From: an uncultured Selenomonadaceae bacterium
GTDB lineage: Bacteria > Bacillota > Negativicutes > Selenomonadales > Selenomonadaceae
NCBI GenBank assembly: GCA_905234195.1
Contig: CAJOFR010000001.1
Span: 99,057 to 163,056 of the forward strand
DNA: 64,000 bases
Direction: 5' to 3'
The notes beneath the pieces were generated by a model. That model ran no database searches. It worked only from the letters and a program-made list of their open reading frames with translations, and was not told where the DNA came from. Shown piece by piece: positions 12,621-36,256 of the stretch; position 1 is the stretch's first letter, and each line of letters begins with the position of its first letter. Position numbers and translations under genes: made by a program.

Positions 12621-12629
12621 GGGGATTTT

Positions 12630-13265
12630 ATGGATTTTATAAAACAGCCAATGGCGATAGAGAGTCGCAGTATGGAGATAATTGCTCCTTATTTGTCGTC
12701 ATTAAATTTAAATGATGAAGAATTGAAAATTTACTCAAGAATAATTCACGCGACAGGAGATGTGGAATACGCATCTATCATTAAAATTCATCCCTTCGCG
12801 ATTTCTTCTACCAAATCAGTAATTCAGCGTGGAGGAAATATTTTTACAGACGTTGAAATGGTTCGTACCGGAATAAATAAACGAAATTTAAAAAAATTTG
12901 GTGGCGAAGTTTTTTGTAGGATTTCAGACGATAAAGTCAAAATTATTGCAGAAAAAGAAAAAATTACTCGTTCTATGGCGGCAATGCGTGATTTCGGGAA
13001 AGATCTTGATGGGGCGATTGTTGCTATTGGCAATGCTCCCACCGCGCTTTTTGAGGTTTTGCGGCTCGTGCGTGAAGAAAAAATTTTCCCCGCTGTTATT
13101 ATCGGCGTGCCGGTTGGTTTTGTCGGAGCGGCTGACTCGAAAGCTAAGCTCGCCGCTCAAAATGAGATTCCTTTCATTACAGTTAATGGCACAAAGGGCG
13201 GCAGTTCAATCGCTGTCGCAATAGTCAACGCGATTCTTTATCTTTTGGACAATTCGAGGTCTTAA
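12630..13265 (+). CDS. cbiC: Precorrin-8X / cobalt-precorrin-8 methylmutase
   Basis: Motifs IHATGD, IGNAPTAL, GVPVGFVGAADSK and GTKGGSSIAVA are present. Confidence 0.85.
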   Translation: MDFIKQPMAIESRSMEIIAPYLSSLNLNDEELKIYSRIIHATGDVEYASIIKIHPFAISSTKSVIQRGGNIFTDVEMVRTGINKRNLKKFGGEVFCRISDDKVKIIAEKEKITRSMAAMRDFGKDLDGAIVAIGNAPTALFEVLRLVREEKIFPAVIIGVPVGFVGAADSKAKLAAQNEIPFITVNGTKGGSSIAVAIVNAILYLLDNSRS

Positions 13266-13266
13266 C

Positions 13267-14637: not shown

Positions 14638-14638
14638 A

Positions 14639-14667
14639 TTGCAATGCGCGCGCCAAAATGGTAGAAT
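14639..14667 (+). promoter_or_regulatory. Sigma-70-type promoter for rnj (TTGCAA-17 nt-TAGAAT with a TG extension)
   Basis: The hexamers were read directly at 14639-14644 and 14662-14667, with TGg immediately upstream of the -10. Confidence 0.5.
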
Positions 14668-14751
14668 ATTGCCAGCATGAGTGTTCGGATGGTTATTTTT
14701 ATTATCTGAGGAGGCGGATTTTATTGAAACTATTTGGAGGTGTATATAATT

Positions 14752-16425
14752 TTGAGAAATGATCAAAAAATTGAACAAAAACTACAAATAATTCCTCTCG
14801 GCGGGCTGGGTGAGATCGGCAAAAATATGACGGTTGTGCGGTTCGGCGAAGAGATGATTTTAGTTGATTCGGGCTTGATGTTTCCGGAAAATGATATGCT
14901 TGGCGTCGATTTGGTTATTCCGGATATTTCTTACGTCATAGAAAATCAGCATTGCTTGAAGGCAATTATTTTGACGCACGGGCACGAAGACCATATTGGC
15001 GCGCTACCTTACATCTTGAAACAACTTTCGGTTCCCGTTTACGGCACGAAGTTGACGCTTGGGATTTTGGAAGGCAGACTTAAAGAAAATGGCGTCGACT
15101 CCGGAAATTTGCGCGTCGTCACTCAAGGTGAAATTATTGTGCTCGGTTGTTTTAGCGTCGGGTTTATTCGGGTAAATCACTCAATTCCCGATTCTGTCGC
15201 GCTTTCGATTAAGACGCCGATTGGTATGATTGTCCACACGGGCGATTTTAAGTTCGATTATACGCCGGTTGATGGGAAGATGACGGATTTTCGCCGCCTT
15301 GCCGATTTGGGAAATAAGGGCGTGCTCGTTCTGCTTGCCGATTCGACAAATTCCGAAAAGGAAGGTCACACGTTGAGTGAAAAAACCGTCGGAATTGCGT
15401 TCAATCGCGAATTTCAGAACGCGCAGGGGAGAATTATAGTCGCAACTTTTTCTTCAAATGTGCACAGAATTCAGCAGGTTATTGATACTGCCGTTCGTTA
15501 TCGCCGTCGTGTCGCGGTTTTGGGGCGCAGTATGGTCAACGTCGTCAACATTTCTCTTGAGCTCGGGTACATTCACGCGCCGGAAGGGGTTATAATTGAC
15601 GTAGAAGATATTGTCAATTATCCAGCAAATAAAATAGTTATCATTACGACCGGCAGTCAGGGTGAGCCGATGAGCGCGCTGACGCGAATGGCAATGTCTG
15701 ATCACAGGCAGGTTGATATTGTTCAGGGCGACACGGTTATAATTTCTGCGACGCCGATTCCTGGAAATGAAAAAATCGTCGCGAAAACTATCGATAATCT
15801 TTTGAGGCTGGGGGCGAATGTGATTTACAGCCGGAACGAAGGAATTCATGTTTCGGGGCACGCCTCGCGCGAAGAGCTGAAACTCATGCACAATCTTATT
15901 AAACCGAAATTTTTTATTCCCGTTCATGGCGAACTGCACCACCTTTTTGCGCACGCCAAACTTGCCGAAGATCTGGGGATGTCGCGCGACCATATTCTTG
16001 TTGGCGAAAACGGATTTATTTTTGAGTTCACGAAGGAGCGCGGAAAAGTTGTCGGCAGGGTTAATTGGGGCGTCGTTTTGGTTGACGGGCTTGGTGTCGG
16101 TGACGTCGGCAATATTGTTTTGCGGGATCGCCGTCAGCTTGCGCAGGAAGGCGTTGTTATCGTGATAGTCGCGATGAATCACGAGACGGGCAAAATTATT
16201 TCCGAGCCGCAGATTATTAGCCGGGGTTTCGTGTATATCCGCGACGCGTCTGAACTTATCGACGAGGCGAAAAATCGCGTATCGCAGGCTTTAAAAACTT
16301 GCGCCGAGTCAAAGATTGTGGATTGGAGCACGTTAAAAATTCAAATTAAAGATACTTTGAGTCAATTTCTCTTTGAAAGTACTCGTCGACGTCCGGTCAT
16401 TCTTCCTGTCATTATTGAAGTTTAA
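14752..16425 (+). CDS. rnj: Ribonuclease J (metallo-beta-lactamase / beta-CASP)
   Basis: Motifs IPLGGLGEIGKNM, HGHEDHIGALPY, the beta-CASP region and HVSGHASREE are present. The start is TTG 14752, 11 nt after GGAGG. Track start 14734 lies inside the RBS. Confidence 0.9.
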   Translation: MRNDQKIEQKLQIIPLGGLGEIGKNMTVVRFGEEMILVDSGLMFPENDMLGVDLVIPDISYVIENQHCLKAIILTHGHEDHIGALPYILKQLSVPVYGTKLTLGILEGRLKENGVDSGNLRVVTQGEIIVLGCFSVGFIRVNHSIPDSVALSIKTPIGMIVHTGDFKFDYTPVDGKMTDFRRLADLGNKGVLVLLADSTNSEKEGHTLSEKTVGIAFNREFQNAQGRIIVATFSSNVHRIQQVIDTAVRYRRRVAVLGRSMVNVVNISLELGYIHAPEGVIIDVEDIVNYPANKIVIITTGSQGEPMSALTRMAMSDHRQVDIVQGDTVIISATPIPGNEKIVAKTIDNLLRLGANVIYSRNEGIHVSGHASREELKLMHNLIKPKFFIPVHGELHHLFAHAKLAEDLGMSRDHILVGENGFIFEFTKERGKVVGRVNWGVVLVDGLGVGDVGNIVLRDRRQLAQEGVVIVIVAMNHETGKIISEPQIISRGFVYIRDASELIDEAKNRVSQALKTCAESKIVDWSTLKIQIKDTLSQFLFESTRRRPVILPVIIEV

Positions 16426-21794: not shown

Positions 21795-22709
21795 ATGGGA
21801 ATTTTGGTTAATAAAGATACAAAAGTTATAGTGCAGGGGATTACCGGCAAGGCGGCGACTTTCCACACGAAACAAATGCTTGCTTACGGCACAAAAATTG
21901 TTGGCGGCGTCACGCCGGGCAAGGCAGGGCAAATTGTCGAAGGCGTTCCCGTTTTTAATACTGTTATCGACGCGGTGAAAGCTACGGGCGCGACGGCGTC
22001 GGTTATTTATGTTCCCGCGAAATTTGCCGCCGATTCGATTATGGAAGCAGTCGACGCGGAACTTGACGTCGTGGTTTGTATCACCGAGCACATTCCGGTT
22101 ATGGACATGGTAAAAGTTCGCCGTTATATGGAGGGCAAAAAAACTCGTCTTATCGGTCCGAACTGCCCGGGAATTTTGACAACGGACGAATGCAAGCTTG
22201 GGATTATTCCCGGGTACATTCACAAGAAAGGGCACGTCGGAGTTATTTCGCGTTCGGGAACTTTGACATACGAGGCAACGTTCCAACTGACTGCGGCGGG
22301 TATCGGGCAGACGACTGCGATTGGTATTGGCGGCGATCCCGTCAAGGGGATTGATTTTATTGACGCGCTGAAACTTTTCAAGGAAGACCCCGACACAAAA
22401 GCCGTGCTGATTATCGGCGAAATTGGCGGCAGTGCTGAAGAGGACGCCGCGAAATGGATTGCCGAGAACATGCCCGAAAAACCCGTCGCCGCGTTCATTG
22501 CGGGCAGGCAGGCTCCTGCGGGTAAACGTATGGGGCACGCCGGCGCGATTATTTCCGGCGGCAAGGGCACGGCCGCTGACAAAATTAAAGCTCTCAACGC
22601 GGTTGGTATCGAAGTCGCGGACACCGTCGCACATATCGGCGAAACCGTCGTCAAAACTCTCAAGCGCGCAGGAATTTACGAACAGTGTCACAGTAACTTT
22701 TTGTCGTGA
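21795..22709 (+). CDS. sucD: Succinate--CoA ligase alpha subunit
   Basis: Motifs [25 protein letters not shown] and the catalytic His loop MGHAGAII are present. Confidence 0.93.
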
Positions 22710-23422
22710 CGAATCGCAGTATCTTCAAAACAAAAATAATCGGGACGGTGGCGGGACTCCGTGTACTCGAACTGAATCCCTTCTGAATTAAAAACTCGAC
22801 CGCTGATAATGACAAGACAATTATAATCGTCAAGCTCAAGATAATTTTTGTCTTCGCTCGTCGCAAATTCGGCGGTCATTTTTCTTTTGCTCGTCATGAT
22901 TTTCATTTTGAGTTCGTTTTCGAGATAATCATAGATGGATTTTTTCGCGATTTCCTCATTCAAACCGCGCGCAGCTGAAACGAGAAAATAATTCTTGTCA
23001 AAAATTAAAGCCTTGCCGTCAATACAGCGGACGCGCCGCACGTCGTAGAGTTTGTCGCCGATTTTAAAACCTGTCCTCTCGGAAATTTCCTCGTCCGCCT
23101 CAACTTCCTCCAGGCGAACAACTTTTGTATCGTAGGTGAAGCCGTTCCGCGCCGCCGCCTCCTTGAAAGACTCAATCCCGCCGATTTTGAAAACGTTTCT
23201 TTCCACCGGCTCGTAAATCACGCGAATACGACTGCCCTGCCGCATTTGCACATATCCGCGCTCAATCAAAATTTTTATCGCGCGGTGAACGGTACTTCGC
23301 ACGCAACCATAAATTTTCGTCAAATCCCTCTCCGACGGCAGATAAGAATTGAAAGTATATTCCTGTGTCTCAATTTTGTTTTTCAAATCGTAATAAATTT
23401 TATCGAACTTAGTTTCCGGCAT
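22688..23422 (-). CDS. treR: GntR/HutC-family repressor with a UTRA domain, the likely trehalose operon repressor
   Basis: It has a wHTH ([25 protein letters not shown]) plus a UTRA domain and is divergent from the tre PTS genes. I chose ATG 23422, 9 nt after GGGAG. Its 3-prime end overlaps sucD by 22 nt. Confidence 0.8.
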
Positions 23423-23521
23423 GTTTCTCATCTCCCAAAGTCAACCATTTCCCTTATTATAGCGCGAATTATTTTCAACGGGAATAAAAAATTTTTTTGC
23501 GGAAAAAAATTTTTTATTTGC

Positions 23522-23577
23522 TTGACTTGTCTAAACGAAAATGGTATAAACGATTTAAAGATTGCAGTCTTGTACAA
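23522..23577 (+). promoter_or_regulatory. tre promoter (TTGACT-17-TATAAA with a TG extension) with two HutC-type operator candidates
   Basis: GTCTAAAC (23529-23536, GT-n-TA-n-AC pattern) lies inside the spacer. The perfect palindrome TTGTACAA (23570-23577) lies just downstream of the -10. Confidence 0.5.
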
Positions 23578-23608
23578 ACAAATCCGAATTAAAAAGGGGG
23601 CTTTGGGA

Positions 23609-25564
23609 ATGGGCACTTACACAAAAGATTCTGAAGAACTGCTCAAACTTGTCGGCGGCAAGGAAAATATTGCGGCGGTTTCTCACTGTATGACGCGCAT
23701 GCGATTTGTTTTGGTTGATCCGAAAAAAGCTGACGTCAAGGGGATTGAGGCGATGAAGGTCGTCAAGGGCAGCTTTACTCAAGCGGGACAATTCCAGGTT
23801 ATTATCGGCAACACGGTCAGCGAATTTTACAAGGACTTCACGGCTTTTGCGGGCATTGAAGGCGTTTCGAAAGACGCGGTGAAGGCGGCGGCGGGTGCTA
23901 ACCAAAATATTTTGCAACGGGCGGCGGCTATTGCGGCAGAAATTTTTGCGCCGTTGATTCCCGCGATTATCACCGGCGGTCTTATTCTCGGTTTTAGGAA
24001 CTGTATCGATTCGCTTTATATTTTTGAGAACGGTACGAAGACCCTCGTCGAACTCAGTCCGTTTTGGGCGGGCATGGATCACTTCCTCTGGCTGATTGGT
24101 GAAGCCGTCTTCCATCTCGGTATTCCCGTCGGTATTTGTTGGTCTGTCGTTCGCAAAATGGGCGGCACTCCCATTCTCGGTATCATTCTCGGTTTAACTT
24201 TGGTCTCAAGCCAACTCCTGAACGCCTATGCAGTGGCGACAACTCCTCCCGACCAAATTCCTGTGTGGGATTTTGGCTCCTTCCAATTTCAGCGAATTGG
24301 CTATCAAGCGCAAGTTATTCCTGCAATTCTGGCGGCGTTGACTTTATCTTATCTTGAAAAATTTTTCCGAAGTATAGTTCCCGCCGTAGTGTCAATGATT
24401 ATCGTACCTTTCTGCAGTTTGGTTTTGACTGTAATAGCGGCGCATTTTATTCTTGGTCCTATCGGCTGGAAAATCGGCTCGGCAGTTTCCAGCGTCGTCT
24501 TCAGCGGCATTACCGGCGACTTCCGAATTATTTTCGGCGCGCTTTTCGGTTTTATCTATGCTCCGCTGGTTATTACCGGCTTGCACCACATGACGAACGC
24601 CATAGACTTGCAACTTATCGCGGACTACGGCGGAACCATGTTGTGGCCTATGATTGCGCTTTCCAATATCGCGCAGGGCTCCGCAGTTTTGGGAATGATG
24701 TATCTGCAACGCAAGAACGCGGCGGCACAAGAAGTAAATGTTCCCTCGTGGGTGTCGTGTTGGCTCGGCGTCACTGAACCTGCTATTTTCGGTGTCAACA
24801 TTCCGAAACTGTTTCCTTTTATTTGCGGTATGACGGGCTCGGCGTGCGCGGCAATAGTTTGCGTCTCGACTTCGACAACGGCTAACGCAATAGGCGTCGG
24901 CGGCGTCCCCGGCATCCTGTCGATTCAGCCGCAGTACATGCCCACATTCGCGCTTGCAATGCTCGTGGCTATCGTCGTACCGTGTGTCTTAACGATAGCT
25001 GTCGGCAAGAAAAGGGGTATCGACAAAGAAGCAGAAGCGGCTCAAGCTGCAGCTGAAATAGAGGCAGCGGCAGAGGCGGCAAATGCGGCGGCGGCGGCTA
25101 ATCTCGTCAGCGAAAATGAATTTAAAGCTTACCTTGACGGCGAAGTTATCAGCCTGAAGGAAGTTGGCGACGGCGTCTTTTCCGAAAAAATGGTAGGCGA
25201 CGGTCTTGCGATTAAACCCGCTAACGAAACTGTCTGCGCGCCGGTCTCCGGAAAAATTACCGTGCTCATGGAAGATTCGAGGCACGCTGTCGGCATGACG
25301 CTTTCCAATGGCGTTGAAGTTTTAATTCACGTCGGAATAGATACGGTCGGCATGGGCGGCGACGGATTCAGTTATCTCGTAAAAATTGGCGACGTCGTCA
25401 AAGTCGGTACTCCGCTCTTGAAATTCAGCAAGGCAAAAATCAAGGCGGCGGGTCATCCCGATACGGCAATAATGGTCGTCACAAACCCCAACGGTATCGA
25501 CACGTTTAAATTCTTGAGCGGCATGCAGGGCAAAACTAATCAAACTGTTATCGCGACTTACTAA
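23609..25564 (+). CDS. treP: PTS trehalose(-like) transporter, fused EIIB-EIIC-EIIA(Glc)
   Basis: It has the EIIB Cys motif AVSHCMTRMRF, a multi-TM EIIC, an Ala-rich linker and an EIIA-Glc domain (GDGLAIKP...HVGIDTV). The start is ATG 23609, after AAAGGGGG. Confidence 0.85.
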   Translation: MGTYTKDSEELLKLVGGKENIAAVSHCMTRMRFVLVDPKKADVKGIEAMKVVKGSFTQAGQFQVIIGNTVSEFYKDFTAFAGIEGVSKDAVKAAAGANQNILQRAAAIAAEIFAPLIPAIITGGLILGFRNCIDSLYIFENGTKTLVELSPFWAGMDHFLWLIGEAVFHLGIPVGICWSVVRKMGGTPILGIILGLTLVSSQLLNAYAVATTPPDQIPVWDFGSFQFQRIGYQAQVIPAILAALTLSYLEKFFRSIVPAVVSMIIVPFCSLVLTVIAAHFILGPIGWKIGSAVSSVVFSGITGDFRIIFGALFGFIYAPLVITGLHHMTNAIDLQLIADYGGTMLWPMIALSNIAQGSAVLGMMYLQRKNAAAQEVNVPSWVSCWLGVTEPAIFGVNIPKLFPFICGMTGSACAAIVCVSTSTTANAIGVGGVPGILSIQPQYMPTFALAMLVAIVVPCVLTIAVGKKRGIDKEAEAAQAAAEIEAAAEAANAAAAANLVSENEFKAYLDGEVISLKEVGDGVFSEKMVGDGLAIKPANETVCAPVSGKITVLMEDSRHAVGMTLSNGVEVLIHVGIDTVGMGGDGFSYLVKIGDVVKVGTPLLKFSKAKIKAAGHPDTAIMVVTNPNGIDTFKFLSGMQGKTNQTVIATY

Positions 25565-25572
25565 AACTAAAA

Positions 25573-25627
25573 GCGGGCAATCGAAATTTTCCCTGAGTTT
25601 CGTTTGCCCGTTGTTTAAATTTTTTGT
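25573..25627 (+). terminator. Possible intrinsic terminator/attenuator between treP and treC
   Basis: The stem GCGGGCAATCGAAA / TTTCGTTTGCCCG has one mismatch and an 11-nt loop, and is followed by a T-rich tract. Confidence 0.4.
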
Positions 25628-25693
25628 CGGGTGAAAAATAAATCGGCTTGTAATATAATGTGCGAAAGTAAAAATTTTTGGGGAGGTTTTAAA

Positions 25694-27328
25694 ATGAAAT
25701 TTTCTTCCGGTACAGTCTACCAAATTTATCCTCGTTCATTTTATGATTCAAATGGCGACGGAATAGGCGACATTCGCGGAATTATCGAAAAGCTTGACTA
25801 CATTAAAAGTCTCGGCGTTGATTATATTTGGAGCACGCCCTTTTTCGTTTCGCCGCAACGTGATAACGGCTACGACATCGCGAACTACCGCGAAATTGAT
25901 CCGCGTTTCGGGACAATGGCGGACGTCGAAAAACTTATCGCGGAGGCAGGCAAGCGCGGCATCTCGATTATGATGGACGCCGTTTTCAATCACACTTCGA
26001 CGGAGCACGAATGGTTTCAGCGCGCGCTAAAAGGCGAAGAAAAATATTTGAACTACTATATTTTTAAAGACGGGGAGCCTGATAAGCCGCCGACAAATTG
26101 GGTGTCAAAATTCGGCGGCAATGCGTGGGAATATGTTCCGCACCTGAAAAAATGGTACTTGCATTTGTTTGACGTGACGCAGGCGGATTTGAATTGGGAA
26201 AACCTCGAAGTCCGCGAAGAACTGAAAGATATTTTGCGCTTTTGGAAAAAGAAAGGCGTCAAGGGTTATCGTTTCGACGTCGTCAATTTAATTTCAAAGC
26301 CGGCTGAATTTGTCGATGATAATCAAGGCGACGGGCGCAGGTTTTACACGGACGGGCGGCACGTCCACGAATTTTTGAAAGAGCTCGTCAAGGACTCCGG
26401 TATCGACGGAATGATTACCGTCGGTGAAATGTCCTCCACGTCAATCGACAACTGCATAAGGTATTCCAATCCGAATGAACATGAACTGAGCATGACATTC
26501 AGTTTTCATCATCTGAAAGTCGATTACAAGGGCGGGGATAAATGGTCACTTATGGACGCCGATATTTCCGCGCTGAAAAAACTTTTTGAAGATTGGCAGG
26601 TCGGCATGGCGGAGGGCGGCGGCTGGAACGCTGTTTTCTGGTGCAACCACGATCAACCGCGCGCAGTTTCTCGTTTCGGCGACGACGAAAAATTTCATAA
26701 CGAGTCAGCGAAAATGTTGGCGGCGACTGTTCATTTGATGCGCGGGACGCCGTACATATATCAAGGCGAAGAACTCGGCATGACGAACGCCAAATACACT
26801 TCGATTGAACAGTATCGCGACGTCGAGAGCCTGAACTACTACAAAATTTTGCGCGACGCCGGGAAGTCTGAAGAAGAGGCATTAAAAATTATCGGCGAAC
26901 GTTCACGCGACAACGGGCGCACGCCTATGCAGTGGTCGGCTGAAAAATTCGCGGGCTTTTCGAGTGTCGAGGCGTGGATTTCTTCGCCGGAAAATTACAA
27001 GCAGTTTAACGTTGAAGTCGAGGAGCGCGACGAAAATTCCGTGCTGAACTTTTATAAAATGCTCGTCCAGTTCCGCAAAAATAATCGCGTCGTGCAGGAA
27101 GGCGATATTAATTTCCTTGAGCGCGATAATAACGACGTCATTGCTTACCGCCGCAGTTTGGACGGCGAAGAGTTAATTATTCTGTGCAACTATCGTGGCA
27201 AAAATGTTGACTTGAGCGAAAAAAGTTTGTCCGAGTTCTGCGCGGCGGGCTACAAAAAAATTATCGGCAACTACGAAAATCTTGCCGATAACCTCCGCCC
27301 GTATGAAGTCATCGTCTTCCAAAAATAA
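25694..27328 (+). CDS. treC: GH13 alpha,alpha-phosphotrehalase (trehalose-6-phosphate hydrolase)
   Basis: GH13 motifs are present: YQIYPRSF, DAVFNHTS, GYRFDVVN, VGEM and FWCNHDQPR. The tre context supports the substrate call. The start is ATG 25694, after GGGAGG. Confidence 0.8.
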   Translation: MKFSSGTVYQIYPRSFYDSNGDGIGDIRGIIEKLDYIKSLGVDYIWSTPFFVSPQRDNGYDIANYREIDPRFGTMADVEKLIAEAGKRGISIMMDAVFNHTSTEHEWFQRALKGEEKYLNYYIFKDGEPDKPPTNWVSKFGGNAWEYVPHLKKWYLHLFDVTQADLNWENLEVREELKDILRFWKKKGVKGYRFDVVNLISKPAEFVDDNQGDGRRFYTDGRHVHEFLKELVKDSGIDGMITVGEMSSTSIDNCIRYSNPNEHELSMTFSFHHLKVDYKGGDKWSLMDADISALKKLFEDWQVGMAEGGGWNAVFWCNHDQPRAVSRFGDDEKFHNESAKMLAATVHLMRGTPYIYQGEELGMTNAKYTSIEQYRDVESLNYYKILRDAGKSEEEALKIIGERSRDNGRTPMQWSAEKFAGFSSVEAWISSPENYKQFNVEVEERDENSVLNFYKMLVQFRKNNRVVQEGDINFLERDNNDVIAYRRSLDGEELIILCNYRGKNVDLSEKSLSEFCAAGYKKIIGNYENLADNLRPYEVIVFQK

Positions 27329-28585
27329 TCAACCCTTAAGACGTTTATTTACCCTGTCGCAAAAATCTTCGGCGGCGTGGCGGTAGGCGTCAATCGGTTT
27401 ATCGTCGGTCTCCTGGTAGCCGCGCGAAATGACAACGGAATTTTGCGGATCGACCAGCCAAAAATTTGCGGTGACCGCCCAATAAAAAGAATAATAAGCA
27501 TAATGACCGGAAATATTTTGGTCATAGCGGGAAATTGTCATGGTGTGTTCTTTGCCATCTTTATCCCGCCATTTTCTTTCTTCAAGGCTGACGAGATTGG
27601 TATTCACCGAATAGCTCGGCTCGTGCCAAACCGGAATAAGCCTGCAACTTTCGACACTGCTCCGCAAAAAATATTGCACGGGCAGAGGATTATTTTCGCT
27701 GACGATAATTTTTGCGCCCTTGATATTTTTAATCGCCTCGTCTTGAAAAGCATAAGTCATTGCGTTCGCGTAATGTGCATCCTCTTTAAATTCGCCCTCC
27801 ATTGTCACCGGCGTGAACCCAATCCGAATGCCGCCCGAAGTTTCTTTGCCGGTATTCTTCCCCTTTTTCGCGTCGCCGAAAACTTCCTGGAAGTCCTTAA
27901 CCAAATTTTTGAACTGCCCCTCTTCGTTGACGTTGTAGCTGCGATTTTGTTGGACGGAAGTCAAAATTTTGTTCGCGTTCTTGTCGTAGCCGGTGAATTC
28001 CACAGTCATGCGGTGAAGATAAATTTTCATCTCCGGCAAAACAAAATGCTCCATACGAGATTTTTCGTTAAGAGTTTCATTTCCGTCGGGGCCGCCCGTG
28101 ATTTCCGTCCACGAACTTAGCTGAATATCCCATTCGCGGCGCGGGGAAGTATCCACCTGCACGCGATTTTCCCTGAAGCGCGGCACGATATAGGCATCCG
28201 CCATTAACGCCTCTTCGACGGCGGCGGCGCGTGACTCTTCGTCGGGGAAGGGCGCAAGCAAATTTTCGTATCGTTGCGTCGTAATTTCGTCAAGCTCGTG
28301 AATTTCCTCAGCCAGCCGAATAAAAAGAACTTTGTCCAATTTTTTGCTAAGCCGCTCTTCAAGATAAGCGTTAAGCTTAAAATTTCTCGTGCCCTCTTCG
28401 CCGCGCCGATAATCATTTTGAGATTCCCAAGCGTTGCTTAGCGGGAAAATCACGACCCTTTCAAAATGATCAAAGCCGACGTCCCTGTCGTACCAAAAAA
28501 TTTCGTGCGCCGAAACATTTGACGAACTAAAAAAAATTAAACCGGTCACAATGCCGGCTAAAAACTTTGTAAAAAAATTTTTCAA
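27329..28585 (-). CDS. Secreted protein E of the five-gene operon (418 aa), with two degenerate CsgG/LpoB-like modules
   Basis: The TTG start lies 9 nt after GGGAG. It has an AxA signal peptide (SSNVSA/HE) and the motifs ERVVIFPLSN, ADAYIVPRF and FWLVDPQNSVV. Confidence 0.6.
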   Translation of the reverse strand: MKNFFTKFLAGIVTGLIFFSSSNVSAHEIFWYDRDVGFDHFERVVIFPLSNAWESQNDYRRGEEGTRNFKLNAYLEERLSKKLDKVLFIRLAEEIHELDEITTQRYENLLAPFPDEESRAAAVEEALMADAYIVPRFRENRVQVDTSPRREWDIQLSSWTEITGGPDGNETLNEKSRMEHFVLPEMKIYLHRMTVEFTGYDKNANKILTSVQQNRSYNVNEEGQFKNLVKDFQEVFGDAKKGKNTGKETSGGIRIGFTPVTMEGEFKEDAHYANAMTYAFQDEAIKNIKGAKIIVSENNPLPVQYFLRSSVESCRLIPVWHEPSYSVNTNLVSLEERKWRDKDGKEHTMTISRYDQNISGHYAYYSFYWAVTANFWLVDPQNSVVISRGYQETDDKPIDAYRHAAEDFCDRVNKRLKG

Positions 28586-28603
28586 AGCAAAACGCTCCCT
28601 TCG

Positions 28604-29209
28604 TCAAATATTTTTTTTAATCTTCTCGGCAATTTCGTGCGCCGCCTTCTCCAACGCCTGATTCAAGCAGTCTTCGGAAAATTCCAGCTGCCCGCTGCGA
28701 AAAATTCTTCCGATTCGATTGACGCGCGCTTTAGCAATTCCCTTGCCGGTGAAAATCGCAACCTCTTCGCCGGTGGCAACGTCGAAAATTCTCACGCTCA
28801 AACCTGCGCGAATGCCGTCGCCCTTGCCGATAATTTTTTCGTCGGTGGTGCGGCTCAAGTTCGTCAAGTATCCGACGAGGAGATATTCACAGCCCTCGAC
28901 GCTCGCCACGTCACGAACCTCCGGCGTAATTTTTCCGACCTGCATCATAATTAAAAGCTCGTCCATTATCGCCTTCGTGGTCTCGCCCGTCAAGTCGCGC
29001 AGGTCAGCGCAAGAAATAATCTCGTCCATGATAATCATTGGCGCGGCGTGAAAAACTTCAACCTGCTCATTATCTAGATTGGTAATCGGAACGCGGCTCG
29101 TGAAGTCGACAATTCCAATCACCGGAAAATTTTTTGCCTCCGCTTGAAAATTTATCGCGCCGAAGACAAAAAAAATCGTCGCCGCAAAAATCGCGCGCAG
29201 GACTTTCAT
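28604..29209 (-). CDS. Secreted CsgG/LpoB-like protein D (201 aa)
   Basis: ATG 29209 follows GGTGGAG. It has a signal peptide ending AEA and the motifs FPVIGIVDFTS, GCEYLLVGY and IFDVATGEEV. Confidence 0.65.
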   Translation of the reverse strand: MKVLRAIFAATIFFVFGAINFQAEAKNFPVIGIVDFTSRVPITNLDNEQVEVFHAAPMIIMDEIISCADLRDLTGETTKAIMDELLIMMQVGKITPEVRDVASVEGCEYLLVGYLTNLSRTTDEKIIGKGDGIRAGLSVRIFDVATGEEVAIFTGKGIAKARVNRIGRIFRSGQLEFSEDCLNQALEKAAHEIAEKIKKNI

Positions 29210-29222
29210 TTTCTCCACCACC

Positions 29223-30026
29223 TTAAAATTTAATCGCCTTCAATCCTTTTTTTGTCAGATTCTCCACGAGTTCGCCGGCTTGCTTGTTCAAAACAAAATT
29301 AATCATATCGCCGATTGTATAATTATTTCCGTACTTGCCGATTAAAACATTCGTGGTCAAGCTCGTGCGCTTTTCTATATTCTGCCCCTCAAAAACTTTT
29401 CCGGTTTTCACGTTGACGAGATAATATTCCATTTCGATTTTTGCACGCTTGCCGCGCAAGTCGTCAGTGGAAGGGCTCGCGCCAAAAATCCCGCCGGTTT
29501 TCCGCCAAACATCGGCGTCACGAACGTTGCAGAAGAGCATGTAGTCGACGTCATACTTTTCGCCGAGAGCGCGAACATTTTCCGCAACGGCGGGCGTCAA
29601 ATTATAGGGCTTACCCTCAAGTTTCCTGCGCGCCGCAGTTTTCTTTTCGTCCTGAAAATATTCCTTGCCGAAAATCGAATCGCCGTACCGAATCATTTTT
29701 ACATTCGCCATGCGCCGCAAGTAAAGTCTGCCGTGCGCGATGGCGTCCATGTGAATCGTCGAAAAAATTTCGTCCTCCTCCGTCGGCTCAAAATCAAAAT
29801 CGTTAAGATTATTTCGCGTGGTCACGTTGAAGGAAGTCTGGAGGTTTTCGCGGATAACGTCGTAAAAATTTTCCATGAACTCCGGCTTTAATTCGTAGAC
29901 GCCGTAGCCTGTGACTTCGGCAAGGAGAATGCGCGGCGCGTTATTTTTTTTCAGCGCGTCGAAGGCGGCTTCAGCAGGCATCGCAAAAATCATCGCCGCC
30001 AAAATCAAAAGGAAAAGTTTTTTCAT
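29223..30026 (-). CDS. Secreted protein C (267 aa), a divergent member of the same module family
   Basis: It has a signal peptide ending AEA/AF and the motifs PRILLAEVTG, DVDYMLFCN and LVNVKTGKVF. Its start lies 1 nt after the stop of gene B. Confidence 0.6.
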   Translation of the reverse strand: MKKLFLLILAAMIFAMPAEAAFDALKKNNAPRILLAEVTGYGVYELKPEFMENFYDVIRENLQTSFNVTTRNNLNDFDFEPTEEDEIFSTIHMDAIAHGRLYLRRMANVKMIRYGDSIFGKEYFQDEKKTAARRKLEGKPYNLTPAVAENVRALGEKYDVDYMLFCNVRDADVWRKTGGIFGASPSTDDLRGKRAKIEMEYYLVNVKTGKVFEGQNIEKRTSLTTNVLIGKYGNNYTIGDMINFVLNKQAGELVENLTKKGLKAIKF

Positions 30027-30027
30027 T

Positions 30028-30660
30028 TCAGTACCTGCCTCGCCTGTTCATGTTAGCTATCAGATTTTTCACGAGGACAACGGCAGATTTTTCGAGCGCG
30101 TCATTCACCTGGTCGCCGTTAATTTCGTGACTGCCCACCCGAATAATTCTCAACGGGGCTTTGGTGAAATGCGTCGTCGATTCAGCAACAGAACGCGCCG
30201 TCAATTCCACACGGCTCGTCTCAACATTAATCAGGCGCGCGCTAAGACGAGCAACAACGGTGTAACTGTTACTCGCGAAGCCGGCAATTTCGTTGACGCG
30301 CTTTTTGGAGCTAAGCCCGTCGATACTGCCGACAAGAAGATATTCCGCGCCGTCTATGTTCAAAGTCTGCACAATCGTCACGGGATTAGCCGTTTGCATT
30401 TGAATCATCTGCTCGTCTAAAATTTCCTTGAGGTATTCGCGTTCAAGCAGATCGAATCTTCCGGTGTTGAAAAGTTCGTCGTAAATCACGCCGGTCAAAT
30501 TAATTTGGTCGTCGAAGTTTATATCGGGGGAGACCGCCGCTTTTTTCGTGAAGGGAATGACTGCCGTGCGCGGGTAGTCGTAAATCCCCGCCGCGCAGAT
30601 TTCCGGCAACGCCATTATCAAAAGCGCGCAGATTGTCAAAAAAATTTTTCGTGCGAACAA
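30028..30660 (-). CDS. Secreted CsgG-family-like protein B (210 aa)
   Basis: The TTG start follows GAGGAGGGGG. The motifs are TAVIPFTKK, GRFDLLEREYLKEILDEQ, GAEYLLVGSI and LINVETSRV. Confidence 0.7.
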   Translation of the reverse strand: MFARKIFLTICALLIMALPEICAAGIYDYPRTAVIPFTKKAAVSPDINFDDQINLTGVIYDELFNTGRFDLLEREYLKEILDEQMIQMQTANPVTIVQTLNIDGAEYLLVGSIDGLSSKKRVNEIAGFASNSYTVVARLSARLINVETSRVELTARSVAESTTHFTKAPLRIIRVGSHEINGDQVNDALEKSAVVLVKNLIANMNRRGRY

Positions 30661-30673
30661 TTTTACCCCCTCC

Positions 30674-31570
30674 TCAACGATTTTTATTTTCGTAACGGTA
30701 GCCGCTGCGGTTGCTGACTTTCATTGCGACGCGCTTAAATTTTTTCTCGATTTCCTCCGCCGCAACATTCGCGGCATTTTTTACGGCGTTCCTCTCGGCA
30801 AGATCCTGGCTCGTGCCATTGCCCTTGCCGCTTGCCGTGAACGTGCCGACAATTTCGCCGTTCGTCAGCTTAATAATTTTCGCAGTGACGTCCGCATTTC
30901 CGACGTTAATCGGGTGATTCATGTAGCCACCGGTGCGATAATTCGGGAGCTGAACATTTTGGGCGGCGGCGTGAGTTTTTCCGAGTACAAGATAATCTGC
31001 GCCGTAACTCGAACCAATTCCGACAAGCCCGCGTTCCCCGTTGTAAAGCCTCTCCAACAAAACTGCGTTCTCAAGATTGGCAACAATGTCCGCGTCGACG
31101 ACGTGATTAAATCCGAGTTGCAAAAGTCTGTCGTTCACGGCGGCTTCGCTCAATTCGTCGTGGGTACCGGCGGGCGCGTCGTCCTTCAGCATGATAACGG
31201 TTATGCGCGGGTCGTTCAGCCGCATGATTGTTTCGAGGCGGCTCATCAAATCCGTATCAGCCTCCGCCGCCACGTTCATTCTTGCGCGGACTAGCCAACC
31301 GCCGTCAGAAGTTTTTGTTTCGCTCAAAATTTTTACGTCGTTCACGAAACCCTGCGACGCCGCATAAATTTCGTCAAGCTTGACCATAGAATTTTCAACA
31401 AGAGTATCTGCGTTAATGTAAGTGCCGACAACTTGTTCGACGGCGGCTTGCTCCGCCCTCTTCAGTGCCTCGTCGCGCGTCAAGCCGAATCCTTCCGCAA
31501 CAACTTCCTGCGCGAAAGTGGTTGCCGTCATGAAAATCAAAAGTAGTATCGTGAGAAAAAATTTTTTCAT
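30674..31570 (-). CDS. Secreted protein A (298 aa): an N-terminal LPP20/FlgT-N-like domain plus a CsgG/LpoB-like module
   Basis: ATG 31570 lies 8 nt after GGAGG. It has a signal peptide ending TFA/QE. The N-domain reads GFGLTRDEALKRAEQAAVEQVVGTYINADT. The C-domain has PRITVIMLKD, GADYLVLGK and IIKLTNGEIV. Confidence 0.6.
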   Translation of the reverse strand: MKKFFLTILLLIFMTATTFAQEVVAEGFGLTRDEALKRAEQAAVEQVVGTYINADTLVENSMVKLDEIYAASQGFVNDVKILSETKTSDGGWLVRARMNVAAEADTDLMSRLETIMRLNDPRITVIMLKDDAPAGTHDELSEAAVNDRLLQLGFNHVVDADIVANLENAVLLERLYNGERGLVGIGSSYGADYLVLGKTHAAAQNVQLPNYRTGGYMNHPINVGNADVTAKIIKLTNGEIVGTFTASGKGNGTSQDLAERNAVKNAANVAAEEIEKKFKRVAMKVSNRSGYRYENKNR

Positions 31571-31624
31571 CGTCATCCCCTCCGAAAATTTTTTCCATTA
31601 TACGGCGGCAACTTTAAAACTGCA

Positions 31625-34144
31625 TTAAAATTTTTTCAGAACTTCGCGCAAAAATTTTCCGGTCAGACTTTTTTCGTCGTCGATAATTTCTTCGGGCGTG
31701 CCCTGCGCGACAATAAAGCCGCCGAATTCCCCGCCGCCGGGTCCCATGTCGATAATGTAATCACTGTTCGCAATAACGTCGAGGTCGTGTTCAATGACGA
31801 TAACAGTTGCGCCGGCGTCGACGAGCTTGTTAAAAATCCCCAGCAAATTTTGGACGTCAAGAGGATGCAAACCAATCGTCGGCTCGTCAAAAACAAAAAC
31901 CGCGTCGTCCTGAGTCCTTCCCATTTCTGCGGCAAGTTTCAATCTTTGAGCTTCGCCGCCGGAAAGCGCGGGAGTGTCTTCACCTAAAGTCAGATAGCCC
32001 AGCCCCAAGCCCTGCAGGACGAAAAGTTTATCGCGGATTTTTTTATCGCCGTCGAAAATTTGAATCGCCTCGTTGATTGTCATTTTCATAATCTCCGGCA
32101 AATTTTTCGAGTGCCAAAAAATTTTCTCGGCGTCCTTCCCGTAGCGCGAGCCTTGACAATCCGGACAAGTAACCGTCACGTCGGGAAGAAACTGCACGTC
32201 GAGGGAAATTTGCCCCGTGCCGTCACAAGTCTTGCAACGTAATTTTCCCGTGTTGTAGGAAAAAGCCCCCGCGTTAAATTTTTTAGCCTTCGCGTCCTTC
32301 GTGGCGGCAAAAAGTTTTCGCAGGTCGTCCATTACCCCGCTGTAGGTCGCCACCGTCGAGCGGATATTAATTCCAATCGGCGCGGAGTCGATTAAATTTG
32401 CGCGGGCGATACCTTCGGCGGAAATCTTTTTGACGTGCGCGGGAAGTTTCCTTTTGTCAATCATTGACTGTAACGCGGGAATCAGACTTTCCAAAATCAA
32501 AGTCGTCTTGCCGCTGCCCGAAACCCCCGTCACCGCAACCAATCTGCCCTTCGGAATTTTCAAAGACAGCTCGTGCACGGTATGAATGGGCGCAGTTTCC
32601 ATTTTGATAATTCCCGCGTCGAAAATATTTTCCTTCGGAATTTTCCTGCGCGTCAAAATATTTATCTCTTCGGTGATAAAGCCGGCGATTTTGGAATTTT
32701 TTTCGCGGGAAATTTCTGCGGGGGTGCCCTGCGCGATAATCGTGCCGCCGTCCTTCCCGGCAAGCGGCCCCAACTCAATCATGTAATCTGCGCGCTTTAA
32801 AACTCTGACGTCGTGGTCGACAAGCACGACAGAATTTCCGTCGGCAAGGAGACTGTTCACGACGCCCATAAGCCCTTCGATATTTGACGGGTGCAAGCCG
32901 ATTGACGGTTCGTCAAGAACATAAAGCACACCGGTAGTTTCGTTGCGGACAGCGCGCGCCAACTGAACGCGCTGACGTTCGCCGGTGGAAAGCGTACTGC
33001 TCGCCCTGTCCAACGAAAGATAACCCAGCCCCAAATCTTCAAGCCGCCTTGCATTTTCGAGAAAAGATTCTATAATATTTTCAGCCATCGGGCGCAAATT
33101 TTCGGGCAAAGTCGCGGGAACATCTTTAACCCAAATAATCAGCGCGTCCAAAGTCATCGCCGTAGCTTCGGCAAGATTTTTTCCGGCAAGCATGGACGAA
33201 CGAACTTTTTCACTCAAGCGCGTGCCGTGACAATCCGGACAAATTCCCGTGCGCAAAAATTTTTCGACACGTTTCATTCCGTTTTCGTCCTTGACTTTCG
33301 ACAGCGCATTTTCTACGGTGTACTTCGCGTTAAAATATGTGAAGTCCATTTCGCCGACCGCGCCGCTGGTTTTGTTTTGGTAAATCATGTGGTGCTTGAC
33401 GGGCGCGCCGTGAAAAACAATTTCCCTTTCTTCGGGAGTGAGTTCGCTGAACGGAACGTCGGTACGTACGCCCAAATCCCGCGCAATATCTTTCATTAGC
33501 GACCACATTAGAGTTTGCCAGGGGAGCACCGCGCCTTCGTCAATTGTCAGCGATTCGTCGGGGACAAGCGTCGATTCGTCAACCACGCGCGTAATTCCCG
33601 TGCCTCCGCATGTCGGGCAAGCTCCGTCAGAATTAAAAGCCATCTCCTCCGCGCCGGGTCCGAAAAATTCTTCGCCGCACTCCGGACATTTTATCGGCAA
33701 CATTAACGAAACAGCCATGCTCGGCGCATTCAAGTGACCATTCGGGCAACAGTGACTGCCCACGCGCGAAAACAAAAGCCGCAAGCTGTTCAAAAGCTCC
33801 GACGCCGTGCCAAAAGTACTGCGGACATTCGGGACGCCAGGCCTCTGGTGAAGAGCCAGCGCGGCGGGAACGTGTTTGACTTCGTCGACGTCAGCCCTTC
33901 CTGTCTGTGAAATCCTCCTGCGTGTGTAAGTCGAAAGAGCCTCCAAATATCTGCGCGACCCTTCAGCGTAAAGAGTGCCGAGAGCCAAAGAAGATTTTCC
34001 GCTGCCCGAAACACCGGCAATAGCCGTCAACTTCCCCAGCGGTATATCGACGTCAATGTTTTTCAAGTTATGAACTTTCGCGCCGCGCACAATAATATTT
34101 TTCGGCGGCGTCCGGCTAAAATTTTTTTCTGCAAAACTTTCCAC
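31625..34144 (-). CDS. UvrA-family ABC ATPase paralog that lacks the UvrB-binding domain (UvrA2 / class II-like)
   Basis: 839 aa with two ABC modules (GVSGSGKSS twice, LSGGEAQRL, LSTGERQRV). Only about 22 aa lie between HCCPNGH and CPECG, where canonical UvrA carries the ~135-aa UvrB-binding domain. The insertion-domain-length segment between CPTCGGTG and CPDCHGTRL is retained. Confidence 0.85.
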   Translation of the reverse strand: MESFAEKNFSRTPPKNIIVRGAKVHNLKNIDVDIPLGKLTAIAGVSGSGKSSLALGTLYAEGSRRYLEALSTYTRRRISQTGRADVDEVKHVPAALALHQRPGVPNVRSTFGTASELLNSLRLLFSRVGSHCCPNGHLNAPSMAVSLMLPIKCPECGEEFFGPGAEEMAFNSDGACPTCGGTGITRVVDESTLVPDESLTIDEGAVLPWQTLMWSLMKDIARDLGVRTDVPFSELTPEEREIVFHGAPVKHHMIYQNKTSGAVGEMDFTYFNAKYTVENALSKVKDENGMKRVEKFLRTGICPDCHGTRLSEKVRSSMLAGKNLAEATAMTLDALIIWVKDVPATLPENLRPMAENIIESFLENARRLEDLGLGYLSLDRASSTLSTGERQRVQLARAVRNETTGVLYVLDEPSIGLHPSNIEGLMGVVNSLLADGNSVVLVDHDVRVLKRADYMIELGPLAGKDGGTIIAQGTPAEISREKNSKIAGFITEEINILTRRKIPKENIFDAGIIKMETAPIHTVHELSLKIPKGRLVAVTGVSGSGKTTLILESLIPALQSMIDKRKLPAHVKKISAEGIARANLIDSAPIGINIRSTVATYSGVMDDLRKLFAATKDAKAKKFNAGAFSYNTGKLRCKTCDGTGQISLDVQFLPDVTVTCPDCQGSRYGKDAEKIFWHSKNLPEIMKMTINEAIQIFDGDKKIRDKLFVLQGLGLGYLTLGEDTPALSGGEAQRLKLAAEMGRTQDDAVFVFDEPTIGLHPLDVQNLLGIFNKLVDAGATVIVIEHDLDVIANSDYIIDMGPGGGEFGGFIVAQGTPEEIIDDEKSLTGKFLREVLKKF

Positions 34145-34246: not shown

Positions 34247-34282
34247 ATTACAGATTTTTATAATCGGGAGTTTGGAATTTTG

Positions 34283-34657
34283 ATGAGGAATTTTTTTATT
34301 GTAGTGGCGGCGATTATTTTTCTGGACGTTCAAACCTGCGCGGCTGAAAATTTAAAATTCATTGACGCCAAAGGAGATGTCGGCTATTTCGTCGACGTGG
34401 ATACTTTTAAATCGGTGAGCCCTTCCGTCTTTGAAATAAATTTCGTCGTGATAAAAATCGACGTGAATCAAATGGAAGTGACGGCGTTGCAGATAAATCA
34501 CGCGGAAAAAACTTACACGATTCTTTCGACAAAAACTTTGTCCTACGACGAGCGGGCGGAGCTGGCTACGGACGACGAGCAGAGACCCGCGCGGTCATAT
34601 TCAGATAAATCTTTAATGGGCGAAATGGTGCACATTATTCTTTACGGAGGCGATTAA
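34283..34657 (+). CDS. Small secreted protein (124 aa), function unknown
   Basis: It has a signal peptide (FFIVVAAIIFLDVQTCAA/EN). I recognise no family. It lies immediately upstream of the LptD-like gene. Confidence 0.45.
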   Translation: MRNFFIVVAAIIFLDVQTCAAENLKFIDAKGDVGYFVDVDTFKSVSPSVFEINFVVIKIDVNQMEVTALQINHAEKTYTILSTKTLSYDERAELATDDEQRPARSYSDKSLMGEMVHIILYGGD

Positions 34658-34690: not shown

Positions 34691-36256
34691 ATGAAAAATT
34701 TTTACAGGCTGAAAAAATTTACGGCTGTGTCGCTTTGCACTTTAGGGGCTAATTTTATTTTTTCCGAAGCCCCAAAGGCCGAAGCTGTCTACGAGGCGAG
34801 ATCCGATACAGGCACCGAACTTTTTAACTATATTGAAAATCGACGGCGCGAGGAACGAGCCAACGCTTTGACCGAAGAACAGAAAAAATTGCTGAAAGAT
34901 ATAGAGACGGCGAAAAATAATTTGCCAAAACCTATCCAAGAGGGCGAGCCTGTTCCCGTAGCTTTTGAGGGCAGCAGTTTATCTTTCGACGCCGCGACGG
35001 GAGAATTTTCTGCGGCGGGTAAAGTTGATATCATTCAGCTTGAAGGCTATCGCTTTCAGAGCCGCGAGGCCGCCGGAAATATCAACGAACAAGAAATTCG
35101 CGTGCACGGCAAGGCGCACATGTTGCAGCTGGTTGAGGGCGCGCCGCGTGTCACCCTCGACGGCTATGATACCGTTTACAATTACGGCACGAAGACCGGC
35201 ACAATGGGCAGGGCGCGCGGAAAAGCCGGCGAATATTATATTTCCGGCAAGCGTTTTGAATTTTATCCGGATCATATCGTCGTTTATGACGCCACGCAGA
35301 CGAAGTGCGGAGCGAAGAAACCCGATTATCACGTCGGCGCAAAGAGAATGGAAATTTGGCCCGAACAAATTATTCGCATGTACGACGTCAAATTTTATGT
35401 CGGCGAAAGAATGGTCGGCTCGCGCGGCTATTTTGAAAAAAAGATTGAGGAGGGCGATAACCCCTACTTCCCGCGTCTCGGCTACGATACGGATCACGGC
35501 GCGTATATCGAAGACACTTTCGAGATCCCCGTTATCAACGAACATTTCAAGGGCGTGATACATGCGCATATCGGGACAAAAAGCCACATCCGCAGCAACG
35601 CAGAATTTCATTATGACAACAGGGAATTTTCCGCGAAGGCTTTGTACGGCTACTACTACGACACCAATAAATCTTGGATTAAGAAGGAACCCGGGCTGGA
35701 TTTGCTTTTCCGCAAGCGTATTCCGAATTTACCGATGAGTTACAGCATCGAATACGAAATTGGCGATTGGAGCGCGCGCGGAATTTCGAGCACCCACCAG
35801 GAATTTGAAATTGGTCTGGCTCACGACCCTATAACGCTGTTTAAGAAGTACAATCTTTTTTTGAGCACGAGTTACAAAATTACGAAAGACGACGTGAAAA
35901 CTTCCGGCGTTGGCGATTCAACCGTTAAGGGCATGAATTATCGCGGTGTGGTTATGCGGGAATTTGACGACAGGTTTGCCGCTTATCTCGGCTACGAGTA
36001 CACGAAAAACAATTCTCAAAACTCGGTCTTCGATTTCGGTTTAGACAGTTACTCGAATAAATTTATCGCCGGCGCAAGTTATCGGCTGACTGACAGAGAT
36101 CGCTTTGTTGTCGGCTTAAAATTTGACTCGGCGCGCAGGAGACTTGAAGACGCGGATTATTATTGGTACCGTGACTTGCACTGCTCGACGGCGATTATTC
36201 GCTGGCGGCAAAAGCGTCATAAATGGGAAGTTCGTTGGCAATTTACGCCATGGTAA
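34691..36256 (+). CDS. LptD/OstA-like outer-membrane beta-barrel protein
   Basis: It has a signal peptide, an OstA-like N-domain (GKVDIIQLEGYRFQSREAAGNINEQEIRVHGKAHM), a TKCG...PDYHVGAKRMEIWP segment like the LptD TTC...PxW region, alternating beta-strand sequence and an aromatic C-terminus (RWQFTPW). Confidence 0.55.
   Translation: MKNFYRLKKFTAVSLCTLGANFIFSEAPKAEAVYEARSDTGTELFNYIENRRREERANALTEEQKKLLKDIETAKNNLPKPIQEGEPVPVAFEGSSLSFDAATGEFSAAGKVDIIQLEGYRFQSREAAGNINEQEIRVHGKAHMLQLVEGAPRVTLDGYDTVYNYGTKTGTMGRARGKAGEYYISGKRFEFYPDHIVVYDATQTKCGAKKPDYHVGAKRMEIWPEQIIRMYDVKFYVGERMVGSRGYFEKKIEEGDNPYFPRLGYDTDHGAYIEDTFEIPVINEHFKGVIHAHIGTKSHIRSNAEFHYDNREFSAKALYGYYYDTNKSWIKKEPGLDLLFRKRIPNLPMSYSIEYEIGDWSARGISSTHQEFEIGLAHDPITLFKKYNLFLSTSYKITKDDVKTSGVGDSTVKGMNYRGVVMREFDDRFAAYLGYEYTKNNSQNSVFDFGLDSYSNKFIAGASYRLTDRDRFVVGLKFDSARRRLEDADYYWYRDLHCSTAIIRWRQKRHKWEVRWQFTPW

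Follow-up and report, generated by a model that had tools for sequence, protein, structure and literature searches.

A cassette of five genes, named A to E, was analysed in a 64,000-nucleotide (nt) stretch of the genome of an uncultured Selenomonadaceae bacterium (assembly GCA_905234195.1, contig CAJOFR010000001.1), referred to here as the window. The domains of its products belong to known superfamilies, and the cassette itself is a conserved, multi-paralogue set of envelope proteins of a diderm-Firmicute clade. Compared at the level of whole systems, none of the five products qualifies for curli, the flagellar H-ring or LpoB, nor for the DUF4810/DUF799 trio, PelC or LipL46. One of its products, protein E, is a new sequence family which, according to its predicted structure, consists of tandem CsgG/PelC/LptE-like modules. 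A sequence-only reading of the window had described five back-to-back minus-strand open reading frames (ORFs) with spacers of 1–18 nt in a diderm Firmicute. The exact coordinates agree with this description, the gaps A-B, B-C, C-D and D-E being 13, 1, 1 and 18 nt, and the closest named relatives are indeed Selenomonadaceae. No description of the cassette was found in the literature, nor was any paper linking Negativicutes with CsgG-like clusters.

Related loci and contigs carry the labels L002 to L027. The order A-B-C-D-E is retained, with genes of similar size and unrelated flanks, in at least seven contexts (the window, L012/13, L014, L023/24, L025, L011 and L021). D and E diverge most across cassettes (identities down to about 25%), followed by B (31–32%), C (33%) and A (40%). 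Since the order is conserved in many contigs at 25–80% identity, A to E are real genes and not chance ORFs. The window carries the minimal five-gene form and larger forms with six to nine genes occur in L002–L010, L015 and L017, so that the amplification to five paralogues is not a one-off event. In L005 and L008–L010 the cassette includes an additional gene, G, for an LPP20 protein, and in L002–L004, L006 and L007 it has nine genes (A, B, C, D, F, G, A2, H and E). The extra genes, up to four in number, lie between D and E (positions 6529–9967 of L007; also L002–L004, L006, L015 and L017). Protein F is of the CsgG/LpoB/FlgT_M type and protein H of the CsgG/LpoB type, and both exceed the Pfam gathering threshold for LpoB. 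Protein G combines an LPP20 domain with an unassigned C-terminal domain of about 150 amino acids (aa), and A2, which also matches LipL46, combines FlgT_N with an additional C-terminal domain. Gene E is duplicated in tandem in L011 (7194–9861).

Judged from sequence profiles and a predicted structure, protein A is a FlgT-like protein which includes the N and M domains and lacks FlgT_C. Its N-terminal SHS2 domain was recognized by a search of the PDB with the A-family profile, which matches 9hmf_C (E-value 6e-6) and aligns residues 23–107 with residues 84–167 with a single one-residue gap. Chain C of 9hmf is a 171-residue "putative lipoprotein" of the Campylobacter jejuni motor model, which we take to be C. 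jejuni FlgP. Although A itself gave no Pfam match below 0.1, PF16548 FlgT_N is matched by 19 of its 27 homologues and LPP20 by 10 of the 27. When the AlphaFold2 (AF2) model of A was compared with known structures using Foldseek, the top match was Vibrio FlgT (3w1e; E-value 3.7e-9, 303 columns, both domains). It was followed by 8z5n_0, which comes from the Vibrio LPHT-ring entry and is presumably also FlgT. Profile, homologues and Foldseek therefore agree in giving A both a FlgT_N and a FlgT_M domain, and the LPP20/FlgT_N-type domain proposed for A in the sequence-only reading is borne out.

After FlgT, Foldseek retrieved CsgG, LptE and GNA1162, all of them, like FlgT itself, matched by the C-terminal module of A with a probability of 1.0; the template modelling (TM) scores of this domain against LptE 4rh8 and GNA1162 4hrv are 0.5–0.56. 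The same region (residues ~120–290) aligns in hhalign with D at a probability of 92.8–94.6% and with B at 48–80%, and the segments PRITVIML, GADYLVLGK and IIKLTNGEIV are in register. In the AF2 model, the helix closing the M-like domain is followed directly by the C-terminus (residue 300), and FlgT_C is absent. A also contains an insert of about 27 residues (51–77), placed after the SHS2 helix and before the second strand, for which the confidence of the monomer model is low. Its equivalent in the SHS2 domain of FlgP is a hairpin from which the concentric rings of Campylobacter FlgP are built (PMC12222027). By analogy, the insert of A may build rings in the same way.

Protein B belongs to the CsgG family. 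It matches Pfam PF03783 with an E-value of 7.4e-13 over positions 12–202 of the 210 of the hidden Markov model, and with 48.7 bits against a gathering threshold of 20.8 it is the only product of the cassette to exceed the CsgG gathering score. The B family profile also matches E. coli CsgG (4uv2) in the PDB with an E-value of 0.007. No direct Pfam CsgG match was found for D, A or E. Protein D is nevertheless a clear relative of B, with 27% identity over the full length (BLASTP, E-value 8e-13) and 99.2% in hhalign. D orthologues in L012–L014 carry a precomputed FlgT_M match, and the D profile matches FlgT weakly (0.05). Protein C is more divergent. Its Pfam matches are weak (CsgG 0.061, 13 bits and below the cutoff; FlgT_M 0.12) and a PDB profile search gave no match. 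These weak matches recur within the C family, where FlgT_M is matched by 9 of 34 members and CsgG by 5 of 34, and hhalign gives 49% against B and 64% against D. It is on the basis of these recurrent matches and of hhalign that C is assigned here, and its topology fits that of a CsgG-like module with an insertion of about 70 residues.

Protein E has no sequence match in Pfam, NCBIfam or the PDB, including by profile search. A sequence-level tie of E to A–D, or of one half of E to the other, was rejected because the hhalign probabilities of these comparisons all fall below 2%; E is linked to the other products by predicted structure alone. The AF2 model is confident, with a predicted local distance difference test score (pLDDT) of 83 and a predicted TM score (pTM) of 0.77. 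In it, each half begins with a strand-helix-strand unit, continues with four to five long strands and closes with a C-terminal helix, so that one topology is repeated. Foldseek matches the model to CsgG (4uv2/4uv3), PelC (5t10/5t11/5t0z), LptE and PqiC with a probability of ~1, and PelC gives the best per-target TM scores for the E modules (up to 0.61). The two halves are separable units, since there are half-length homologues which include only residues 1–240 or only residues 245–412 and since in L019 the halves are encoded by two overlapping genes (859–2144). The E family comprises only 31 clusters in an index of 5.8 billion proteins, and a set of 1.84 billion proteins yields 103 representatives; the named cluster members are all annotated "hypothetical protein [Selenomonadaceae bacterium]". 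A scan limited to short peptide patterns found its nearest relatives in GTDB species genomes in nine metagenome-assembled genomes of uncultured rumen Selenomonadaceae/Selenomonadales.

These results redraw the common ground among the five products. The sequence-only reading had recognized a shared three-part signature in all of them and had attributed it to a single CsgG/LpoB-like module. By hhalign, the signature holds for A, B and D and, less strongly, for C. It fails for E, which has no sequence support and for which the motifs quoted had been drawn from two different modules and are not valid. The shared module is retained for B, D and the C-terminal domain of A, weakly for C, and for E by predicted structure only. 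The proposal that E holds two modules is supported by the AF2 model and by the split and half-length homologues.

Export signals were judged by a Kyte-Doolittle scan and by reading the N-termini of orthologues. All five products begin with a hydrophobic segment that leads into an AxA-type site, and no transmembrane-like segment occurs further on. When the families of A, C and E are aligned, these AxA sites prove to be retained and no Cys is conserved at them, and the same is true of the N-termini of D orthologues (A5 set). All five products are thus predicted to be Sec-exported, with signals that are conserved across orthologues. In B, the signal peptide is closed by Cys22 (C-x-A), which is invariant in 13 of 13 aligned orthologues and in L025, down to ~28–32% identity. 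The preceding residue is I, L, T or V and, by eye, the lipobox would be a non-canonical one. Cys22 could represent either such a lipobox or part of a signal peptidase I site whose −3 position is under unusual constraint. Given that every B orthologue closes its signal peptide with this Cys, B may yet be lipidated. The earlier statement that none of the products has a lipobox Cys is thus literally correct, but the lack of lipidation is open to doubt for B.

The proteobacterial CsgG, FlgO, FlgP, PelC, LptE and LpoB are lipoproteins. To our knowledge, diderm Firmicutes are without Lol, Lpp and Bam lipoproteins, and LptE has not been identified in them. Negativicutes lack LolA–E, and lipidated outer membrane (OM) proteins were not found in the OM proteome of Veillonella parvula (PMC5007114, PMC5491611). 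Because Negativicutes lack Lol, non-lipidated counterparts of these proteins are an expected property of the lineage and not an oddity of this operon, as the absence of lipid anchors had at first appeared to be.

How might these proteins function together? Both folds build oligomeric rings under the OM elsewhere: the titles of the PDB entries describe CsgG as a 9-mer and PelC as a 12-mer ring. In Vibrio, FlgT forms a C26 ring and FlgP and FlgO form C58 rings (bioRxiv 10.64898/2025.12.02.691832). Given this property of the folds and the conservation of the set as a unit, we suggest, with a confidence that stops a little short of even, that A to E would co-assemble in the periplasm, near the OM, into a hetero-oligomeric scaffold shaped like a ring or a disk, which relatives would enlarge by extra LPP20, FlgT_N and CsgG/LpoB paralogues. 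Because the lineage has no Lol pathway, such a scaffold would be kept at the envelope by protein-protein contacts instead of lipid anchors.

Several points weigh against this proposal. Co-assembly and ring shape are both deduced from fold and operon structure, and we know of no description of LpoB, LptE or GNA1162, which have the same fold, as ring formers. The fold of E comes from one AF2 model, for which the Foldseek E-values are only 1e-4 to 1e-3 and the whole-chain TM scores are low, and the model of A is of moderate quality (pLDDT 68). The distribution of E, with its 103 representatives, is narrow and patchy. In addition, E occurs as a solitary gene in L020 (8001–9230) and C in L026/27 (L026 6001–6804), in the latter case beside a TetR regulator and glmS, so that at least E and C can function outside the cassette. 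A fuller version, in which the cassette would encode a multi-ring machine under the Selenomonadaceae OM, built of non-lipidated FlgT- and CsgG-like paralogues including E and acting as a flagellar disk analogue or as a new anchoring or export complex, seems to us rather unlikely. If true, it would show how a ring scaffold can be attached to the OM without Lol or OM lipoproteins.

A special case of the scaffold is that of a flagellar motor accessory, a Selenomonadaceae counterpart of the Vibrio H-ring (FlgT/FlgP/FlgO) or the Campylobacter basal disk (FlgP/FlgQ) with rings around the LP-rings of lateral flagella. Selenomonads are flagellated, FlgT matches A best in structure and does so over both domains, and relatives add an LPP20 protein together with another protein of the FlgT_N type. 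The alignment of the A SHS2 domain with FlgP, with its one-residue gap, also runs across the region of the ring-forming hairpin insert (PMC12222027). We nevertheless consider this unlikely. No flagellar gene occurs within ~10 kb in any context examined or in the 64-kb window, and some genomes carry several such clusters. FlgT_C, which A lacks, is the domain that holds the MotX/MotY T-ring, and B–E show no significant FlgO or FlgP family match. Moreover, no sigma-28-like promoter motif is present in 12 upstream regions, the usual sigma-28 consensus being assumed to be valid in the lineage. Nothing useful on Selenomonas motor structure was found in the literature.

It is also conceivable, and in our view distinctly improbable, that there is no common complex and that A to E are separate periplasmic binders or regulators of the LpoB/LptE/GNA1162 type, which would act, for example, on peptidoglycan synthases or hydrolases or on OM biogenesis factors and be clustered only as a result of tandem duplication. 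This would be in keeping with the passage of the LpoB threshold by F and H, with the TM scores of the A C-terminal domain against LptE and GNA1162, and with the solitary E and C genes. Peptidoglycan-related genes occur upstream of the cassette in L021–L024 (MurJ-like, M23 peptidase, NlpC/P60, polysaccharide deacetylase and MupG), and an uncharacterized beta-barrel-like protein is a frequent divergent neighbour, but neither type of neighbour is conserved across contexts. B itself reaches only 13.6 bits against the cutoff of 110.55 of the LpoB equivalog TIGR02722. Above all, the order and the presence of all five members are strictly kept down to ~25% identity in different neighbourhoods, which argues for a joint function.

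Least probable is a CsgG-type OM secretion channel, with B (possibly together with D) as a beta-barrel pore and A, C and E as periplasmic adaptors or plugs, comparable to CsgE/CsgF in curli or to HfaB in holdfast anchoring: B exceeds the Pfam CsgG threshold over nearly the whole model, its family profile finds E. coli CsgG, the models of E and A resemble CsgG and PelC structures, and in L011 the cassette lies amid secreted CAP-domain and C-type-lectin proteins, but there is no conserved adjacent csgA/B/E/F-like or other candidate substrate gene, no canonical lipid anchor, E has long strands that are highly polar, and mature B is only ~186 aa long compared to 262 in CsgG. In particular, the B segment aligned to CsgG residues ~134–154, presumably the first transmembrane hairpin of its nonameric 36-strand barrel, is shorter by about 6 residues and carries K/R/E.

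The features of the cassette and of its surroundings are listed in Table 1. For two genes the start codon most likely differs from that of the longest ORF. A probably starts at the ATG at 31570, which gives a protein of 298 aa; a ribosome-binding site (GGAGGGG) lies 6 nt upstream of this ATG, and public contigs and the gene call carry the same 298-aa form (exact protein P0032). D most likely starts at the ATG at 29209, four codons into the ORF, in which case the C-D gap is 13 nt. Upstream of A, the A/T-rich box AAAAAATTTTAATG overlaps the stop codon of a uvrA paralogue. Five close relatives (L002, L004–L007) likewise have an A/T-rich box upstream of A and, after it, GTATA[AC]T, in which GTATA.T is invariant, and we infer that this conserved block may be the promoter of the cassette.

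Table 1. Coordinates of the cassette genes, their predicted domains and neighbouring features in the window.
Feature	Position	Strand	Description
Gene A	30674-31576	minus	300 aa by longest ORF; FlgT-like two-domain protein, predicted secreted
A, SHS2 domain (residues 23-107)	31256-31510	minus	FlgP/LPP20/FlgT_N type; profile match to 9hmf_C
A, alpha/beta module (residues 120-290)	30707-31219	minus	CsgG/FlgT_M-like; hhalign and Foldseek
Gene B	30028-30660	minus	210 aa; CsgG family (Pfam)
Gene C	29223-30026	minus	267 aa; divergent CsgG/FlgT_M-like; clearest likeness residues 153-259 (29250-29570)
Gene D	28604-29221	minus	205 aa by longest ORF; CsgG-family paralogue of B
Gene E	27329-28585	minus	418 aa; two tandem CsgG/PelC/LptE-like modules (AF2 model), predicted secreted
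E, N module	~27851-28504	minus	AF2 model
E, C module	~27332-27850	minus	AF2 model
Promoter-like element	31597-31636	minus	A/T-rich box AAAAAATTTTAATG and TATAAT at 31602-31597; read from sequence
Trehalose operon	22688-27328		GntR/TreR-like gene, treB (EIIBC-EIIA), treC
uvrA paralogue next to the cassette	31625-34144	minus	839 aa
Second uvrA paralogue	44742-47261	minus	839 aa
Divergent pair, first gene	34280-34657	plus	125-aa signal-peptide protein
Divergent pair, second gene	34691-36256	plus	521-aa signal-peptide protein

The sequence-only reading had found no recognizable partner genes, and this is upheld: flagellar, curli, pel and penicillin-binding protein (PBP) genes are all absent from the flanks, as judged by Pfam for the window neighbours and from precomputed annotations for more than 10 related loci. 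MotX and MotY are likewise absent from the Pfam-annotated flanks of the related loci, the scan of the window covering the immediate neighbours. A phage or defence origin was rejected. PADLOC gave no match for A–E and PHROGs gave none with an E-value below 1e-4, the lone match being that of B to phrog_29351 (function unknown; E-value 1.9e-4). Carriage by plasmids was also rejected, since a tblastn search with A and E found no match among 72,556 plasmids.

On one side, the cassette borders a trehalose phosphotransferase system operon, and the treC stop codon abuts that of E (27328/27329); no intergenic terminator was detected between treC and E. In some relatives, a gene for an extracytoplasmic function (ECF)-type sigma factor is convergent with E and overlaps it at the 3' end by a few bases (L007 11212–11769, minus strand; also L015 and L016). 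It is absent from the window. Immediately downstream of the cassette in L017, the other strand carries a further cluster of four genes (12351–15192, minus strand); two of its four products match CsgG/LpoB, which suggests that the fold has expanded more widely in these genomes.

On the other side lies a conserved divergent pair of genes for signal-peptide proteins of 125 and 521 aa, which is also found beside the cassette in L005–L010 and L015. The 521-aa protein ends in WQFTPW and resembles beta-barrel families only faintly (OMP_b-brl, PorP_SprF), and the pair could not be placed in any family. The possibility that the 521-aa protein is the LptD of Negativicutes, with the cassette products as LptE-like partners, was rejected: Pfam, NCBIfam and the PDB gave no support, even with a 7-sequence profile, V. 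parvula LptD is recognized as COG1452, and the neighbour is missing from most other contexts. In the window genome only, one of two UvrA paralogues (36.5% identical to each other) sits between the cassette and this usual divergent pair. The C-terminal ATPase half of this copy matches PADLOC mad3 (3.9e-69), probably as a result of generic UvrA similarity.

The envelope of diderm Firmicutes is poorly charted, and the cassette provides a handle on periplasmic and OM-proximal structures without lipid anchors. It adds a new sequence family, E, to the CsgG/PelC/LptE fold and a non-proteobacterial FlgT relative outside a flagellar context. If the cassette is flagellar, the evolution of the H-ring and basal disk would extend to Firmicutes; if it is not, it would represent a new use of these modules.

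Comparison with known systems shows how far these likenesses extend. The trio of CsgG-like, DUF4810 and DUF799 (GNA1162) proteins, LpoB and LptE share the same alpha/beta fold class with the cassette products. However, neither DUF4810 nor DUF799 is matched by A–E at an E-value of 1 or below, A resembles GNA1162 4hrv by fold only, B lies far below the LpoB equivalog cutoff, and it is only F and H of the relatives that pass the Pfam LpoB threshold. There is also no recognizable adjacent lptD or PBP gene, and the cassette proteins are predicted not to be lipoproteins. PelC (5T10/5T11/5T0Z), a ring-forming periplasmic lipoprotein, shares the fold of the E modules, but E shows no sequence similarity to it, is a tandem duplication and is predicted not to be lipidated, and a pel operon occurs in no context.

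Leptospira LipL46 is the sole named family that aligns over both domains of A. The NCBIfam model (NF033164) gives a partial match, with residues 32–286 of A against model positions 56–317 (E-value 1.4e-11), but the score of 43.7 bits is far from the equivalog cutoff of 400. LipL46, with 413 model positions, is a spirochaetal lipoprotein described in the literature as a surface protein and adhesin, for which we found no assigned cellular function. On sequence grounds, A is a distant LipL46 homologue only. As regards the CsgG curli channel (PF03783; 4UV2/4UV3), B is a Pfam member with which D and the C-terminal domain of A, and less clearly C, share homology, and the models of E and A match CsgG structures. 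Unlike CsgG, B is much shorter, with a truncated hairpin and no canonical lipobox, and neither csgA/B/E/F nor another amyloid substrate gene was found adjacent by Pfam in the window neighbours and the more than 10 loci.

Profile searches, which the sequence-only reading had allowed might place the five products in a characterized system, identify the cassette neither as an H-ring nor as a DUF4810/DUF799 trio. The H-ring of FlgT, FlgP and FlgO (3W1E, 8Z5N) and the C. jejuni FlgP basal disk (9HMF) differ from it in several respects: A is only ~14% identical to FlgT and has no FlgT_C, B–E are without significant FlgO/FlgP family matches, flagellar genes and MotX/MotY are missing from the annotated flanks, the cassette proteins are predicted not to be lipoproteins, and there are five to nine paralogues in place of three proteins. 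Nevertheless A has the FlgT N+M architecture and an SHS2 domain homologous to FlgP, the cassette mixes SHS2 and alpha/beta modules, and all its products are exported. The closest characterized analogue is therefore the FlgT/FlgP/FlgO H-ring and basal disk and not curli or LpoB.

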